Shown: positions 3,062 to 33,937 of the stretch, piece by piece | Numbering within the stretch: the first letter of the stretch is position 1 | Layout: each line of letters begins with the position of its first letter | Assembly: GCA_944383355.1 (NCBI GenBank) | Contig: CALWPF010000006.1 | Location: forward strand, 429 to 64,428 | DNA: 64,000 nt | Direction: 5' to 3' | Origin: an uncultured Clostridia bacterium | Lineage (GTDB): Bacteria; Bacillota; Clostridia; Christensenellales; UBA1242 | Position numbers and translations under genes: made by a program | The notes under the pieces: model-generated | What the model saw: the letters and a program-made list of their open reading frames with translations, nothing else | Told to the model about the DNA's origin: nothing | Database searches by the model: none

Positions 3062-3934
3062 ATGCGTTGTAATATTTGCCCTAGGCAATGTAGTATTGAT
3101 AGAGTAGATGGTATAGGTTATTGTGGTATGACAAACAATCTCAAAGTGGCAAAGGTAGGGCGCTTTGATTGGGAGGAGCCTATTATCAGTGGGACTAGAG
3201 GTAGTGGGGCTATTTTTTTTAGTGGTTGCAACTTGAGGTGTAGTTTTTGTCAAAATTATCAAATCAGTAGTGAGGGATTTGGCAAGATAATATCTGTGGA
3301 AAGACTAGCACAGATTTTTTGTGAATTGGAAAATCTGGGTGTACACAATATTAATTTAGTCAGCCCTACCCAGTTTACTGAGCAAATTATCCAGGCGTTA
3401 GATATTTATAAACCCAATATACCTGTTGTATGGAATAGTAACGGTTATGAGAATGTAGATACACTAAAAAAATTAAGAAAATACATAGATATCTTTTTGG
3501 TTGATTGTAAATTTGCAAATGCTGAATTGTCTAATAGATTTTGCCATGCGGTTGACTACCCGGAGGTCAATAAAAAATGTATTTTAGAGATGCTTGAGCA
3601 ACAGCCAGTATTAAAATATAGTAGTGATAGTACCTTGAGCAAAGGCGTTATTATAAGGCACCTAGTGATGCCTAATTGCACAAAAGATAGCAAGTTGATT
3701 TTGGATTATTTGATTAATATAAAGGATAGAGATTATTATCTCAGCCTAATGGGGCAATACACTCCATATTATCTCGCACGCAATGATGAGATGATCAATA
3801 GGAAGTTACGCCCACTGGAGTACAAGGCTGTTATAAGTTATGTCCAAAAATTAGGTTTTGAAAAGGTTTTTATCCAAGACCTAACTAGCGCTACCGAGGA
3901 TTATATACCCAATTGGGATTTGAGTGGTGTTTAG
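3062..3934 (+). CDS. Radical SAM protein, PflX-like (pyruvate formate-lyase activase family)
   Basis: MRCNICPRQC..GYCG N-terminal Cys cluster. GSGAIFFSGCNLRCSFCQN contains the CxxxCxxC radical-SAM motif. 290 aa. Confidence 0.8.
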   Translation: MRCNICPRQCSIDRVDGIGYCGMTNNLKVAKVGRFDWEEPIISGTRGSGAIFFSGCNLRCSFCQNYQISSEGFGKIISVERLAQIFCELENLGVHNINLVSPTQFTEQIIQALDIYKPNIPVVWNSNGYENVDTLKKLRKYIDIFLVDCKFANAELSNRFCHAVDYPEVNKKCILEMLEQQPVLKYSSDSTLSKGVIIRHLVMPNCTKDSKLILDYLINIKDRDYYLSLMGQYTPYYLARNDEMINRKLRPLEYKAVISYVQKLGFEKVFIQDLTSATEDYIPNWDLSGV

Positions 3935-3951
3935 GATAAAAAAGTTTTGGT

Positions 3952-3980
3952 AATGACTTGGGATAGTCATTCTGCTTTTT
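3952..3980 (+). terminator. Weak terminator-like hairpin
   Basis: aatgact (3952-3958), tgggat, agtcatt (3965-3971), then ctgcttttt. Confidence 0.35.
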
Positions 3981-4149
3981 GGTGGTTGTATAAATTTTGA
4001 GTATTTAATAGTTTAATCACAAACCGCTTTTGGTATTGGGCTGGGACTAAAAACTCATTTAAATATTAATTTTATTACTTATAAATTTGATTGATTTTTG
4101 TATACAAAATAGTAATTTGTGTAATTCACAAAAAAGTGTAATTTAACTC

Positions 4150-4178
4150 TTGACAATAAAAAACATTCTGTTATATAT
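4150..4178 (+). promoter_or_regulatory. Candidate sigma-A promoter of the marR-ABC operon
   Basis: TTGACA at 4150-4155, a 16-17 nt spacer, then TATATA/ATATAT at 4172-4178. The track's TTG start at 4150 is the -35 box itself. Confidence 0.5.
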
Positions 4179-4179
4179 T

Positions 4180-4193
4180 GTTAGCATACTAAC
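4180..4193. promoter_or_regulatory. Inverted repeat at the predicted transcription start; candidate MarR operator
   Basis: GTTAG-CATA-CTAAC immediately downstream of the -10 element. Confidence 0.3.
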
Positions 4194-4218
4194 TAAATCT
4201 AAATTGGTGGAATACAAT

Positions 4219-4677
4219 ATGTCACAGGTGAATTACAATAGTTTGGATAGTGAATTGCGCAAATTAGTGATATTAATCAAGCGTAATTATGATAATTTTC
4301 ATAGGCAATACTTTAGTGATTTGACCCGCTTGCAAGGAGAGGTGCTACTCATCATTACTCATGCCTCTAGTGATGTTTATCAACGGGATATAGAGCAAAA
4401 ACTGTGTATTAGGCGCTCAACTGCAACTCAACTGTTATCCACGATGGAGCGCAAGGGTTTGATTACTAGAGAAAATGTGGAGCAAGATGCTAGACTAAAA
4501 AAATTGGTAGTGACAGATAAATCTCGTGCGTTATTGGATATGATGCACAAGACTGCCAAAGATGTGGGTAAAAAATTGATAGATGGTATCAATGCCAATG
4601 AATTACAGCAATTTTTAGAGATATTACATAAAATGCAGGACAATATGTCGCATCAGATTGTTTTTGACACCATTTAG
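4219..4677 (+). CDS. MarR-family transcriptional regulator
   Basis: ATG at 4219 follows GGTGGA. The winged-HTH region QRDIEQKLCIRRSTATQLLSTMERKGLITRE..DARLKKLVVT is typical of MarR. The track ORF 4150..4677 is over-extended at its 5' end. Confidence 0.8.
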   Translation: MSQVNYNSLDSELRKLVILIKRNYDNFHRQYFSDLTRLQGEVLLIITHASSDVYQRDIEQKLCIRRSTATQLLSTMERKGLITRENVEQDARLKKLVVTDKSRALLDMMHKTAKDVGKKLIDGINANELQQFLEILHKMQDNMSHQIVFDTI

Positions 4678-28967: not shown

Positions 28968-29137
28968 GACATCAATTTACAATGCGTTTTATTTTGAATA
29001 ATATATCAAATCGGTAGATATTATAGAGTTTTTAGTTTAATATTGTTGATTGGTTGAGTATAATTTTTCATTTAGTATGTACCTAATACTCAATCATTTT
29101 TTTGTCTATTTTTTGTTTTGTGCGAATACACTACAGT

Positions 29138-30754
29138 ATGGGCAAAATATTGAAATTTAACAACAACCTAGATTATTACCTAAAATTATATGATACACGT
29201 AAAATTGATAATGATTTGTTGGGGGCATTAGATGCTGCGAGGTCTGCATTGACTCACGCAAAAACTCGTATAGATAGAGAGGCAATTAATTTACTATTAG
29301 GACAGGTTTACTATGATATGGGACTTTTTTCTCTATCTTGCGAGTATTATTTTCGTGCGATCAAGACTCCTTTTTCTCGTGCGGGGGCATATTTTGGCAT
29401 AGGAAGAAGTCTAGTAATGATGGATAAATTGTTGCTTGCATTGGAGTATTTTGATGCAGTTTTGGCATGGGATTACAAAGATGAATTTACAGATGCTGTG
29501 CTAGAGTGGTCCGAGGTCATAAAAAATAAACTCAAAAAAGCAGAGTCTACTAATTTAAATAAAAAAATCAAAACAAATATCGCAGGTATATTTAGAATAA
29601 AAAAATATAATGAGGCAGAGAGTTATTTATCTCAATTGGTTGAATTGTACCCTAATGACCCAGATTACAACATATTACTCGTACAGTGCTATTTTTATCA
29701 AAAAAAATTTGATGATGCTAGGAGAGTCTTGTTTGATATCTTGAGACTATTCCCAGAGAATATAAATGCTCTAGTGATGTCATGTCAACTTTGCATTTAC
29801 GTAGAGGATTATAGTAGTTTAGATGAATATTTGCATCTGTTATCCAAATTGGAGATTACAGAGCAGGGGCAAATGTTGTCAATAGGCAATATTTATTTTA
29901 ATCTTGGTAGATACAATATCGCATCACAATATTTTGAGCAAGCGTTGAGCAATAATGAATACAAACCAAAGCTGTTACTATACATAGCTATTTGCTATTA
30001 TAATCAAGGAGATTATGAAAATTCATTGTTTTATGTTGCTCGTGCTCGCTGGATAGATTTTGAGAGCCCTACATTGGTTCAATTTTACAATTTATTTCGT
30101 GAGCAACAGTATTCAGAGCATTTGGGATTGAGTGACAGATTACCTGATGCTGTAGTGGCTCAAAAATATGAACTCGTCAAATCATATCTCGAAAATGAAA
30201 ATTTTGGACAGGAGTTTTTGCGTTCAAATACTATGCTAGATGATTTGGAATGGTCGCTAACATTGAGTGAATTTGAGATAAATCAACTGTTAAGTATGCG
30301 TCTGACATCTATAAAGCACAAAAAAGCTATCAATATGGTATCAAAAATATTATTATCCACTAGACCAACTATCAAACAAAAATTTTTGTTTACAAAATAT
30401 GCCTTGCAATCAGGTAATTACAAGTATATAGATTTGACAGCTAATTACAAGTTTCGTAGCTTTAGTACCAAAATGCAAAAAGCATTATTCAACAACGAGT
30501 TGGTAAGAAATGCAATAAGTAGTGCTCGAGCATATGTTGAATGTTATGCCACGGGCGTAGATATATTGAGCGAGTTGCACGAATTATCTAGAGCAGTCAT
30601 TCGCAAAGGAAATGATATTAAGATAGATGAGAACACTTTGGCATGTGCTTATTTTTACCAAAAAAGTCAAGTTTTGTTTGATGCATGCATATATTTTGGG
30701 GTAGATGTTGGTACAGTCAATCTTGTGTTGAGAGAGCTGGGTATAAATAATTAG
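29138..30754 (+). CDS. TPR-repeat protein
   Basis: Repeated A..Y/F..A helical-pair motifs (LGQVYYDMGLFSLSCEYYFRAI, IGNIYFNLGRYNIASQYFEQAL, AICYYNQGDYENSLFY). The start is ambiguous: ATG at 29138 has no clear SD, and the track TTG at 29102 is possible. Confidence 0.65.
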   Translation: MGKILKFNNNLDYYLKLYDTRKIDNDLLGALDAARSALTHAKTRIDREAINLLLGQVYYDMGLFSLSCEYYFRAIKTPFSRAGAYFGIGRSLVMMDKLLLALEYFDAVLAWDYKDEFTDAVLEWSEVIKNKLKKAESTNLNKKIKTNIAGIFRIKKYNEAESYLSQLVELYPNDPDYNILLVQCYFYQKKFDDARRVLFDILRLFPENINALVMSCQLCIYVEDYSSLDEYLHLLSKLEITEQGQMLSIGNIYFNLGRYNIASQYFEQALSNNEYKPKLLLYIAICYYNQGDYENSLFYVARARWIDFESPTLVQFYNLFREQQYSEHLGLSDRLPDAVVAQKYELVKSYLENENFGQEFLRSNTMLDDLEWSLTLSEFEINQLLSMRLTSIKHKKAINMVSKILLSTRPTIKQKFLFTKYALQSGNYKYIDLTANYKFRSFSTKMQKALFNNELVRNAISSARAYVECYATGVDILSELHELSRAVIRKGNDIKIDENTLACAYFYQKSQVLFDACIYFGVDVGTVNLVLRELGINN

Positions 30755-30763
30755 GTGTAGTTA

Positions 30764-31840
30764 ATGAAAGATATAAAAGAAATTTTGTTAGTGGGTGGTA
30801 TGATATTTGGTTCTATTGCTGGAGCAGGCTTTGCCTCTGGCAAAGAGGTATGGTTTTATTTTGCCCAATTTGGCTGGATATGCTATCCGTTAATAATTGT
30901 TACAGGAATTCTGTTTTTTTTGGTTGCATTTGTGTGCTTGGAATTCGGTAAAAAATTTGCTATATATTCAGTACAAGATATGAATTCGTTATTATTTAAA
31001 AAAGCTAGTTTTTGGGCTGAGTTATTGTTTGCTATGAGTAATTTGGTGCTCCTAGCATCTATGTTTGCTGGGGCAGATAGTTTATTAGGAATCAATTTTG
31101 ATAATGTATACCGATTGGGCGGAGTGATAACTGCGGTACTGACTGTCATAGTAGTATGGCTTGGGTTTGATAAAATCGTCAAGGTAAACTGTATAATTGT
31201 GCCAGCTATGATAATCGTAGTGGCACTAACATTCTTTTATTGTATGGCTGGAATGCCGGCTATCTCTTTGCCAGTAGTTACTGATGATTGGAATGTTTTA
31301 TTTGCTATACTAAATTGCTTGACTTTTGTATCTAGTAATATTTATTTTGCTGGTTTTATATTTGCAAAACTTGGTAAGGCACATAGCACTCGTACCAATT
31401 TATTGGGTAGTATGTTGGGAGCAATATTTATGGTAATATGCGTGCTGGGTATGGTGACTACTATTTATCTCAACCCATATTCTAGTATGAGTGATATGCC
31501 ATTAATATATATTGCTACTGAGGTATCTAGTGTTTTTGGTGTCATTACACAGGTGGTAGTGTGGCTGGGTATATTCACAACTGCAGTTACCCTATTGTAT
31601 GCTATCGGTAATTGGCTCAGAGAATATTTTGGACACTATCATTTGGTTACAATCATAGCTAGTATTTTGGCATTAGGTCTAGCAGGTATGGGATTCAGTA
31701 ATATTATTAATTATTTTTATCCTTTACTAGGTGGATTAGGGGCAATATTCGTAATAATAATGTGCATTGCCACATATCGTAATCCAAAGAAAAAATTAAA
31801 AGATGTGGAGCAGGGAAATATTAGGAGGCTGTCAGGGTGA
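30764..31840 (+). CDS. Polytopic membrane protein, YkvI-like (transporter superfamily)
   Basis: About 10 TM helices. The N-terminus [18 protein letters not shown] resembles the YkvI family. Confidence 0.6.
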
Positions 31841-32529
31841 GTAAAATTAATAATATGTCTATTGATTGGAATAAAAAATATTTAAAAAATAAAATTTATT
31901 TAGACAAAAAAATTAAGATAGATATTAGTACAAAAATATTTCCAAATAACTTCATAATTGGTAGCACAAAAATAGGAATTAATTGTATTTTTTTACCTAA
32001 TAATTTTTTGCAGAATTGTACTATAAAAAATAACGTCACTATTCACAATAGTGTATTGTCAGATTGTGAGGTTGGTGTAGGTTGTAAAATAGGGGTTTTT
32101 AGTCATTTGCGTGATGGAGTAAAGCTAGGTAAAAATTGCAAAATTGGAAACTTTTGTGAAATCAAAAATAGTACACTAGGTGATGGTTGTAAAATGAGTC
32201 ATTTGGCATATGTTGGCGATAGTGAAATTGGCAAAAACTGTAATATAGGTTGCGGGGTTGTTTTTGCTAATTATGATGGTACAAAAAAACAAAAAATAAT
32301 TGTGGGCGATAATGTATTTATAGGTAGTAACAGTATTTTGATTGCTCCACTTAATATTGCAGACGGTACATATATATGTGCTGGTAGTGTGGTCACAGAA
32401 AATACTAATGTTAATGATTTTGTAATTGGTAGAGTTAAGGCAGTGCACAAGGCAAATAAGGCAATAGGTAGGTATTGTCCAACTGACCATCAAAATCAAA
32501 AATCACAAAACGAGTGCATAGTATCCTAA
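31837..32529 (+). CDS. GlmU C-terminal-domain homolog: left-handed beta-helix acetyltransferase only
   Basis: Hexapeptide repeats. [69 protein letters not shown] matches the GlmU acetyltransferase core. There is no nucleotidyltransferase domain. The GTG start overlaps the upstream stop (GTGA); ATG at 31855 is an alternative. Confidence 0.7.
32514..32525 (+). repeat. GTGCATAGTAT(C) motif, occurrence 1
   Basis: Exact 12-mer shared with 32579-32590. It lies in the last codons of the 31837..32529 gene. Confidence 0.9.
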
Positions 32530-32578
32530 AAAACTATATAAAATCACAAAAAAATGCGACATTGTTATGTATTTTGAT

Positions 32579-32590
32579 GTGCATAGTATC
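32579..32590 (+). repeat. GTGCATAGTAT(C) motif, occurrence 2, inside an inverted repeat
   Basis: TTTTGAT-gtgcatagt-ATCAAAA spans 32572-32594, 21 nt upstream of ATG 32612. Confidence 0.9.
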
Positions 32591-32611
32591 AAAAATATGA
32601 GGGGTAGTATT

Positions 32612-33610
32612 ATGAATAATGCTGTAATTTTAGCTGCGGGGAAAAGTAGCAGAATGGGAATGGGGATAAATAAGGTATTGTTAAATTGCGCAGGTGTACC
32701 AATTTTAAAGTACCATCTTGATGCCTTGCGTGCTAGCAAAATAGATAAGATTATCGTAGTGCTCGGGTACCAGGGTGACCAAGTCAAAAAATTGCTAAAT
32801 AAGGATATAAATATAGTCTATCAAAATAAGTGTTGTGGAACAGGTGATGCTGTGATGACTGCAATACCCCAATTGTCAGGAGATGATTATACTATTATCA
32901 TAAATGGTGATGGACCATTTTTGAGTGCAGAGCAGTTGAATAAATTGTTGGAAGAGGCTCAAAAATATGATTTTTTATTGCTTACCCAAGTGATAAAAAG
33001 TAGTAATAAATTTGGCAGAATTTTGCGAGATAAAAATAATAAAATATTAAAAATTATTGAGGCAAGTGATGCTACAAAAAATCAATTAAAAATTGAAGAA
33101 TGTAATAGTGGTGTATATGTTATAAAAACAAAGATTTTGTGTGAATATATTAAGAAAATAAAAGCCGAAAATAATCAATGTGAATATTATTTTACTGATA
33201 TATTAGAATTGTTGGTGAATGATAATAAAAATATAGGTAGTTTTTCTTTTGATGAAGGTGATTTTTTGAACAGTGTTAATACACTAACTGAATTTAGTGA
33301 AATGGAAAGCGTGGTTAGGTATAAAATAAATAGTGATTTACTTTCACATAATATTTGGATACATGATGTGCGTAATACCTATATAGATAAACAATGTAGA
33401 CTAGAGCCAATGTGCGAGATTTATGCTAACACACATATATTAGGTGAATCAGTAATAGGTGAGCGTACCAAAATATTACCTAACTGTTATATAAAAAATT
33501 GTAAAATAGGTAGAGATTGCTTGATTGATGTGAATTGTGTGCTTGAGGGAATAAATTTGGAGGATAACACAATTTTATCTCCAAATACCAAAATGATTTG
33601 TGTAAAATAA
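32612..33610 (+). CDS. GlmU N-terminal-domain homolog: sugar-1-phosphate nucleotidyltransferase plus a truncated beta-helix
   Basis: ATG follows GAGGGG. ILAAGKSSRMG, NKVLLNCAGVPIL, CCGTGDAV and IINGDGPF match the GlmU uridylyltransferase domain. The C-terminus has only the first beta-helix turns and no NYDG acetyltransferase core. Confidence 0.7.
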   Translation: MNNAVILAAGKSSRMGMGINKVLLNCAGVPILKYHLDALRASKIDKIIVVLGYQGDQVKKLLNKDINIVYQNKCCGTGDAVMTAIPQLSGDDYTIIINGDGPFLSAEQLNKLLEEAQKYDFLLLTQVIKSSNKFGRILRDKNNKILKIIEASDATKNQLKIEECNSGVYVIKTKILCEYIKKIKAENNQCEYYFTDILELLVNDNKNIGSFSFDEGDFLNSVNTLTEFSEMESVVRYKINSDLLSHNIWIHDVRNTYIDKQCRLEPMCEIYANTHILGESVIGERTKILPNCYIKNCKIGRDCLIDVNCVLEGINLEDNTILSPNTKMICVK

Positions 33611-33635
33611 AAATGTGGTAGTTTAACCACATTTT
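33610..33635. terminator. Bidirectional terminator between convergent genes
   Basis: aaaatgtggt / accacatttt 10-bp stem with a 6-nt loop. It abuts both stop codons. Confidence 0.7.
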
Positions 33636-33937
33636 TACCTATTTTGTATTAGTTGATTTACTTCCTTTTCTCCCTCGGCAAGGAATTTGGCCTCGTCGGG
33701 AGATAGTTTAATCAGTAGTGTTAGTAATTCTCCAACGTGCACTCTTTCTTCGTTGCGTATATCAGTCCAGACTCTTTTTGCCAATTCATTATCTGTCATG
33801 CGTATGTGTTCATCATACTGAATTATTGCCTCCATTTCCCCCATAATGTCTCTGCGTACAGCATCTACCAATTGTGAGTCGTTTAGTTTACCTTGTAATG
33901 AAACATTTCTTGAGAATCCCTCATTGCTTCTATCCAT
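33635..33937 (-). CDS. Small ferritin-like protein of the encapsulated-ferritin (EncFtn) type
   Basis: 100 aa. GEMEAIIQYDEH....DIRNEERVHVGELL matches the EncFtn E..E/EExxH di-iron motif layout as I recall it. No Gly-rich C-terminal targeting peptide. Confidence 0.55.
   Translation of the reverse strand: MDRSNEGFSRNVSLQGKLNDSQLVDAVRRDIMGEMEAIIQYDEHIRMTDNELAKRVWTDIRNEERVHVGELLTLLIKLSPDEAKFLAEGEKEVNQLIQNR

Follow-up and report, generated by a model that had tools for sequence, protein, structure and literature searches.

GlmU is regarded as a universal, essential and bifunctional bacterial enzyme and serves as an antibiotic target. Within a window of 64,000 nucleotides from an uncultured Clostridia bacterium (contig CALWPF010000006.1 of assembly GCA_944383355.1), two adjacent genes each encode a part of this enzyme, and they do so in reversed order: the first open reading frame (ORF1, 31837..32529, plus strand) corresponds to its C-terminal half and the second (ORF2, 32612..33610, plus strand) to its N-terminal half. 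The question raised by this locus is whether the two genes together do the work of GlmU, or whether they are leftovers of a rearrangement, parts of another pathway or errors of assembly. Our analyses favor the first answer, with a probability of about 0.78: ORF1 and ORF2 jointly replace bifunctional GlmU, in an arrangement that is old and under selection and not a recent rearrangement. A preliminary description, made from the letters of the window alone, had already proposed that the GlmU halves lie in two genes, C-terminal half first. Its coordinates and the motifs it quoted agree with our mapping against TIGR01173 (the NCBIfam glmU equivalog), Pfam and our own hidden Markov model (HMM), built from 110 full-length GlmU sequences.

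ORF1 encodes 230 aa from a GTG start at 31837, with AGGAGG located 7 nt upstream. It is a stand-alone glucosamine-1-phosphate (GlcN-1-P) N-acetyltransferase (AT) by profile, structural matches and retained residues, and comprises the left-handed β-helix (LbH) domain, equivalent to approximately residues 250-456 of GlmU. Positions 255-445 of TIGR01173 are matched with 211.5 bits, Pfam identifies hexapeptide repeats, and columns 260-451 of our HMM are covered; the upstream gene is therefore the acetyltransferase part only, as first described. GlmU chains in the PDB match ORF1 with values down to 2e-42, including the engineered C-terminal constructs 3TWD and 4AA7. Residue-by-residue alignment to solved GlmU structures (E. 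coli numbering throughout) shows that all 11 mapped acetyltransferase active-site residues are present, namely R333, E349, K351, H363, Y366, N377, N386, K392, S405, A423 and R440. ORF1 is thus most likely a homotrimeric LbH enzyme that would acetylate GlcN-1-P using acetyl-CoA.

ORF2 encodes 332 aa from an ATG at 32612, preceded by GAGGGG 7 nt upstream. An earlier start at 32567, giving 347 aa, was rejected: no ribosome-binding site precedes it, and the longer version shows homology only from its residue 17 onward. ORF2 matches TIGR01173 over positions 2-328 (262.7 bits), is recognized in Pfam by NTP_transferase and hexapeptide repeats, and covers columns 4-333 of our HMM. It can be described as a stand-alone N-acetylglucosamine-1-phosphate (GlcNAc-1-P) uridylyltransferase followed by a helical arm and roughly 4-5 LbH turns, a naturally occurring counterpart of the engineered fragment GlmU-Tr331; the preliminary description of a nucleotidyltransferase (NT) domain followed by the first helix turns, with no acetyltransferase core, holds. 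The residues G14, K15, R18, K25, Q76, G81, T82, D105, G140, E154, N169, E195, T199 and N227 are all retained. The AlphaFold2 model of ORF2 (pLDDT 93.4, pTM 0.88) superimposes on S. pneumoniae GlmU with bound UDP-N-acetylglucosamine (UDP-GlcNAc; 1G97) with a TMq of 0.91 and a root-mean-square deviation of 1.8 Å, and it aligns end to end with GlmU-Tr331 (1FWY_B; TMt 0.87 over 324 columns). ORF2 would convert the GlcNAc-1-P supplied by ORF1, together with UTP, into UDP-GlcNAc, while its short LbH stub probably only holds the trimer, as in the engineered fragment.

Neither protein reaches the TIGR01173 cut-off of 366.85 bits, since each is only a part of the full protein. Early LbH turns are present in both, as had been noted at the outset, and amount to about 70 HMM columns in common. 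Over these turns ORF1 and ORF2 are 26% identical, and their identity to canonical GlmU is 33-39% and 27-36%, respectively. The C-terminal end of ORF2, SPNTKM, aligns opposite GPFAHL, just before the R333 position, which is where all the truncated N-terminal halves end, be they ORF2-type, the N' proteins described below or unrelated GlmU-Tr-like proteins (P0053 and P0062, for example). The alignments suggest that structure, and not shared history, determines this boundary. Natural proteins of this shape, some 310-360 aa long, are common, with 62 of the 150 best representative clusters falling between 300 and 365 aa. The catalytic residues are kept in 8/8 paired NT proteins collected, ORF2 included, and in 7/7 paired AT proteins, even though the paired NT proteins are only 33-50% identical to one another.

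To what extent does the cell depend on this pair? The window belongs to a genome of 1.23 Mb in 35 contigs, 93% complete and apparently metagenome-assembled. The preliminary description had called for a search for a canonical gene: no full-length glmU was found in this 93%-complete genome, and no protein genome-wide scored over the TIGR01173 cut-off. UDP-GlcNAc is made from fructose-6-phosphate by way of glucosamine-6-phosphate, GlcN-1-P and GlcNAc-1-P. The presence of glmS (641 bits), a glmM homologue and murA (485 bits) indicates that the genome needs this route, whose last two steps have to come from ORF1 and ORF2 for it to be complete. ORF2 is the only match to PF00483 (NTP_transferase) in the genome. 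Other candidates for the uridylyl step were considered and discarded: the NagU-type family PF01704 (UDPGP) has no match in the window's genome and NagU is also missing from 79 of 81 relatives, and the CofD family, to which GlmR/YvcK as a hidden uridyltransferase would belong, has no match in the window's genome or in any of 41 genomes of the family.

The pair is also embedded in a conserved neighborhood. Upstream of it lie a gene for a TPR-repeat protein identified through Pfam (29102..30754, plus strand), whose true start is probably slightly downstream of the TTG, and a gene for a polytopic membrane protein of 358 aa (30764..31840, plus strand), recognized by its position and orthologues, with no match in Pfam or NCBIfam. 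The stop of the latter overlaps the start of ORF1 by 4 nt. Directly 3' of ORF2 there is a terminator-like hairpin (33608..33637, plus strand) found by hairpin search and common with the convergent downstream gene, a small ORF of 100 aa (33635..33937, minus strand) with a weak EncFtn-like match (PF22277, 17 bits, under the cut-off). Weaker terminator-like hairpins with stems of 6-7 bp occur inside the membrane-protein gene (30832-30850 and 31045-31059), which brings the terminator-like matches to 3 against 1.8 expected by chance; there is none between ORF1 and ORF2. The 4-nt overlap and the placement of the hairpins suggest one transcription unit, judged from sequence, and the four genes are probably co-transcribed as a block that closes with the terminator.

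This layout, comprising a TPR protein, a membrane protein of about 360 aa, an AT of about 200 aa, an NT of about 330 aa and a small convergent ORF, is not peculiar to the window. The TPR-membrane-AT-NT block occurs in at least 7 lineages with an NT identity of only 33-50%, and four sources together provide at least 8 independent assemblies with the AT-then-NT order. The neighborhood is also found in a genome of the same genus (G001, locus L051), in one of another genus (G065, L052) and in metagenome contigs: two from JGI (L024/L025; NT 50% and AT 71% identical to those of the window), Logan contigs with protein P0061 (L080/L081; NT 35%, AT and NT overlapping by 8 nt), an ENA contig with P0242 (L106; NT 40%) and Logan contigs with P0244 (L107/L108; NT 40%). 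The spacing between AT and NT varies from the 8-nt overlap to about 220 nt. Orthologues of the membrane protein lie directly upstream of AT in L024 (590 bits), G001 and G065, with uncharacterized genes of 353-367 aa at the same position in L080, L106 and L107. TPR orthologues precede the membrane-AT-NT genes in L024, L025 and L080/L081, as well as L106, the TPR gene being present wherever the retrieved stretch extends that far. The small convergent ORF is a feature of the metagenome lineages, with an orthologue after NT in L024/L025 and convergent ORFs of 102-105 aa at this position in L080, L106 and L107. The AT-then-NT order is old and stable. Immediate adjacency is a further trait of the neighborhood: wherever a retrieved stretch reaches, the TPR and membrane-protein genes stand immediately upstream of the pair. 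In the ORF2 orthologue of G001 (contig C32), the LAGGNSSRM motif is not preceded by any ATG, GTG or TTG, and the likely start is an ATA codon 6 nt after GGAGG.

Where did the two genes come from? Free-standing AT genes are found in 63 of the 81 family genomes sampled. The stand-alone ATs of the host family are about 200-230 aa long and begin near GlmU position 250-280, a description that ORF1 fits, and among 1918 stand-alone AT homologues the best 120 are mostly 200-220 aa. In a tree on HMM columns 280-452, ORF1 branches from within the free-standing ATs of the family, which share a clade with canonical GlmU of the order; support is moderate (SH-aLRT 83-94). On this phylogenetic evidence, the AT gene descends vertically from glmU of the order and represents its C-terminal half. 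In the host family, this half would have become free-standing and left the ancestral tadA-glmU-pth-mfd site.

The ancestral site itself reveals a third GlmU-derived gene. Other families of the order carry a canonical glmU that is mostly followed by pth and, where the retrieved stretch reaches, by mfd. In the host family the site reads tadA-N'-AT-pth-mfd, or tadA-N'-pth-mfd with AT elsewhere, where N' denotes proteins of about 260-280 aa whose GlmU match runs only from about position 195 to 335, that is, the end of the nucleotidyltransferase domain, the helical arm and the first LbH turns. The copy in the window's genome, outside the window (275 aa; contig C5, 41522-42349; L003, 1102-1929), lies between tadA and pth-mfd. 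N' has no LAAGKGTRM or QxxxLGTG motif and retains DtPL, RGY and the LbH stub. Its AlphaFold2 model (pLDDT 88) finds as best PDB matches only GlmU entries, including the Tr331 structures 1FXJ and 1FWY, with a best TMq of 0.70-0.76. N' is apparently a catalytically dead, well-folded GlmU-Tr-like protein. It is present in about 68 of the 81 sampled family genomes, including genomes that have no AT, and some genomes encode N' and AT as one fused protein. Several relatives carry the stand-alone AT after N' in the canonical order, and where the two lie side by side in this way, both carry columns ~260-334. The genome thus contains three GlmU-derived genes, and its ancestral N-terminal half is N', not ORF2.

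Phylogenetic analysis of the N-terminal region places ORF2 apart from both N' and the canonical enzymes of the order. On columns 4-245, all ORF2-type proteins, i.e., the paired NTs, form one clade (support 99/97) with long branches, outside the clade of the order's canonical GlmU (99/93). In a tree on columns 221-334, N' groups in a single clade with the fused N'-AT proteins (94), apart from the ORF2 clade (93); this mid-region tree rules out a recent duplication of N' as the source of ORF2. A one-residue insertion at HMM column 314 is common to ORF2-type proteins and is found neither in N' nor in canonical GlmU. When named genome contigs were scanned with an ORF2 alignment, in a set without the window's own kin, only distant canonical GlmU from other phyla were recovered. 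ORF2 would derive from a different, fast-evolving GlmU-type lineage. One possibility is an ancient paralogue in which uridylyltransferase activity persisted whereas the ancestral copy became inactive, another a GlmU-Tr-type gene acquired by transfer; the trees are compatible with ancient vertical descent as well as with horizontal acquisition.

Relatives of the host reveal how the uridylyl step is covered elsewhere in the family. Scoring each candidate nucleotidyltransferase across the 81 genomes, we found the ORF2 type in 3, a GalU-like protein in 43 (length about 290 aa; TIGR01099 score 244 bits, under the cut-off of 326.8), a third nucleotidyltransferase of about 300 aa in 14 and a NagU-like protein in 2, both without AT. 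The third type begins with MAAGMGSRFGG (MDLVIMAAGMGSRFGGLKQ...) and reaches only 44 bits on PF00483 (loci L099-L105, e.g., L103 2591-3487, minus strand). No genome carried two of these types (0/81), and the absence of any genome with both the GalU-like and the third type has p ~5e-6 in a simple hypergeometric test, which, like the count, ignores the phylogenetic kinship of the genomes. In a genome of the window's own genus (G002), the GalU-like gene (3634-4512) forms an operon with AT and glmM (L098, contig C6, 3634-6395), and in two other relatives, G022 (L094, contig C3, 2934-4515) and G089, it directly follows AT. This operon arrangement with the stand-alone AT and, in G002, with glmM suggests that a divergent GalU-like enzyme has taken over GlcNAc-1-P uridylylation in relatives without the ORF2 type. 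The overall distribution fits repeated non-orthologous displacement of the GlmU N-terminal domain, and its exclusive pattern lends indirect support to ORF2 as the GlcNAc-1-P uridylyltransferase of its own genome.

More tentatively, N' may be a pseudoenzyme with a selected non-catalytic role, with the GalU-like operon enzymes now acting as the GlcNAc-1-P uridylyltransferases, although we consider this combined proposal somewhat less than an even bet. By analogy, such a protein could sense or regulate the flux of amino sugars or cell-wall precursors; inactive GMPPA, for example, regulates GMPPB. Stand-alone N-domain genes from other families of the order (L095, L096) were examined as possible relatives of ORF2 and set aside, as they fail to group with it and are part of GHMP-kinase salvage clusters. 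At L026/L027, L095 and L096, the N-only or Tr-like nucleotidyltransferases adjoin GHMP-family kinases, plus a ROK kinase or a phosphomutase; these loci are probable hexosamine salvage modules of other Clostridia lineages.

The pair had also been perceived as more AT-rich than its neighbors, and this is modestly so. The GC content is 0.293 for ORF1 and 0.300 for ORF2 against a mean of 0.361 (standard deviation 0.036), the 5th-6th percentile, and at third codon positions it is 0.199 and 0.240 against 0.299 (standard deviation 0.047), the reference being the genome's 678 ORFs of at least 200 aa. We rejected this composition as a sign of horizontal transfer: ORF1, which was inherited vertically, is just as rich in AT as ORF2.

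A duplicated block had also been noted at the junction of the two genes. The repeat is real, with one of its words about 1 nt away from where it was initially placed: the first copy of AAAATCACAAAA (32499..32510) lies inside the 3' end of ORF1, followed after 3 nt by the first copy of GTGCATAGTATC (32514..32525), which encodes the ...ECIVS end of ORF1, and an intergenic second copy of AAAATCACAAAA (32540..32551) is followed after 27 nt by the second copy of GTGCATAGTATC (32579..32590), which ends 21 nt before the ATG of ORF2, all read directly on the plus strand. As a scar of recombination, it did not withstand a genome-wide search. The 12-mer AAAATCACAAAA occurs 7 times in the genome and the 11-mer GTGCATAGTAT 18 times against about 0.9 expected, mostly in intergenic positions and often close to another copy in direct or inverted orientation; within the window, GTGCATAGTAT is found at 32514-32524, 32579-32589, 44616 and 45411. 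The nearest lineage with the pair (L024) has an inverted pair of GTGCATAGTAT at its own AT/NT junction (~3875-3945), and within the NT coding sequence of G001 there are four copies, translated as V-H-S or E-C-I-V. The 11-mer is a selected DNA word of the host group, perhaps an operator; an uptake signal and a recombination signal are the other candidates. Because it stands 21 nt before the start of ORF2, the copy there is a candidate control site, and the block could thus have an additional point of control just upstream of ORF2.

How firmly, then, can the pair be read as a replacement of GlmU? Several points weigh against it. A genome that is 93% complete in 35 contigs may hide a missed gene; the exclusivity of the uridylyl-step enzymes was counted without regard to kinship; and ten AT-bearing relatives have none of the four types at the thresholds used. 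The signature of ORF2 deviates at G16S, T17S, P24N and Y103N, giving LAAGKSSRMGMGINK and INGDGP, the best Pfam family for its residues 4-120 is the MobA-like NTP_transf_3, and such changes may alter kinetics or specificity. Furthermore, an approximately unbiased (AU) test of a topology that keeps the ORF2 clade together with the order's canonical clade did not reject it (p = 0.18). The altered loop (GKSSRM, INGDGP) would suit a different role, in which the pair serves another N-acetylhexosamine or UDP-sugar pathway tied to the TPR and membrane proteins, while an unrecognized enzyme or salvage provides UDP-GlcNAc. The linkage to an uncharacterized membrane protein and a TPR protein, the position of both genes in the lowest 5-6% of GC content and the presence, in other lineages, of GlmU-Tr-like proteins alongside GHMP and ROK kinases in sugar-salvage clusters would all be in keeping with such a role. 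We nevertheless find it improbable, as the sugar and uracil contacts Q76, G81, T82, E154, N169, T199 and N227 are all kept, the GlcN-1-P and acetyl-CoA binding residues of ORF1 are intact, and the genome, in which glmS, glmM and murA are present, revealed no sugar-1-phosphate nucleotidyltransferase other than ORF2. Nor does either protein group with another hexapeptide or nucleotidyltransferase family, so the two genes are not unrelated neighbors, an outcome that the preliminary description had allowed for.

The history proposed there was one of two full-length glmU genes once arranged in tandem at this site, of which the upstream one lost its 5' half and the downstream one its 3' end, with the junction repeat as the scar. 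Both ORFs do retain overlapping LbH turns, a segment duplication clearly occurred in the family, as adjacent N' and AT both carry columns ~260-334, and the AU test leaves room for vertical descent of ORF2 from the order's glmU. In this exact two-piece form the proposal is nonetheless unlikely: the site is not the ancestral glmU site, which still carries N'; the stand-alone AT is widespread and older than the pair; the LbH turns of ORF1 and ORF2 are no closer to each other (26%) than either is to canonical GlmU (27-39%); the insertion at column 314 and the separate clade set ORF2 apart; and the repeat is a dispersed word of 18 copies that also occurs inside the coding sequence of G001. What survives, because of the AU result, is a possible ancient duplication with reciprocal loss of function. 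A third explanation, that the genes reflect an assembly artefact, a frameshift or the decay of one glmU into pseudogene fragments, might draw on the 35-contig draft and the AT-richness of both genes. It is hardly credible given that the same two-gene order recurs in the independent assemblies from four sources, that both frames are open and preceded by ribosome-binding sites, that the catalytic residues are conserved across 33-50% identity, and that a frameshift cannot yield a reversed domain order; the frameshift or inversion artefact that the preliminary description named as a possible refutation is thereby ruled out. Joint replacement of GlmU by ORF1 and ORF2 remains the reading that we favor.

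If so, the locus is a natural and conserved case of the two GlmU activities residing on separate proteins, cut at the boundaries that biochemists had chosen when truncating the enzyme, and it offers a natural reference for the autonomy of the domains, the role of the LbH stub in trimerization and the hand-over of substrate without fusion. It may belong to a larger picture in which GlmU would have been taken apart across a whole family of small-genome gut Clostridia and the uridylyl step replaced several times by unrelated enzymes; with the dead N' and the mutually exclusive replacements, the case grows for the view, supported by recent evidence, that UDP-GlcNAc is commonly made by alternative routes. 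Standard annotation would label such genes "hypothetical" or the pathway incomplete, leading to false predictions of GlcNAc auxotrophy in abundant uncultured gut Clostridia.

Compared with the bifunctional GlmU of E. coli, S. pneumoniae and B. subtilis (EC 2.3.1.157 and 2.7.7.23), the pair has the catalytic domains, active-site residues and fold in common; that enzyme is one polypeptide of about 450 aa, whereas here there are two, encoded in C-then-N order, with early LbH turns in both. The closest parallels are engineered. ORF2 shares the end point of GlmU-Tr331 (1FWY/1FXJ) and matches it over its full length, and ORF1 is matched by the C-terminal constructs 3TWD and 4AA7; in contrast to these constructs, ORF1 and ORF2 are natural, occur in several lineages and are apparently the cell's sole source of both activities. 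As reported in PMC4358021 and PMC10087520, Pompeo 2001 (J Biol Chem 276:3833) found GlmU-Tr331 and the C-terminal fragment each active alone and trimerization required for the acetyltransferase only. By homology to 1FWY, 2OI6 and these fragments, ORF1 and ORF2 would each trimerize on their LbH turns and together carry both enzymatic activities.

Split GlmU as such is already known from work of 2015 and 2026. Renzi et al. 2015 (PMC4358021) described GlmU_Cc, a monofunctional uridyltransferase of Capnocytophaga and other Bacteroidetes, which by that description is, like ORF2, a stand-alone GlcNAc-1-P uridyltransferase for the second step of GlmU; its hosts have no acetyltransferase and rely on scavenged GlcNAc (PMC4358021), whereas here an AT gene adjoins the NT gene. 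Fong et al. 2026 (bioRxiv 10.64898/2026.06.23.733835) reported separately encoded truncated GlmU domains in NagU-bearing species such as Wujia chipingensis. Those species, Clostridia among them, resemble the present genome in lacking full-length GlmU and encoding its halves separately, but that survey covered NagU genomes only and the window's genome has no NagU; in addition, the halves here are adjacent, reversed and set in a conserved block, with a dead N' retained. What is new, therefore, is a conserved reversed AT-NT pair in a fixed gene block of NagU-less Clostridia, with LbH turns in both proteins, a dead N' paralogue kept alongside and mutually exclusive replacement enzymes among the relatives.

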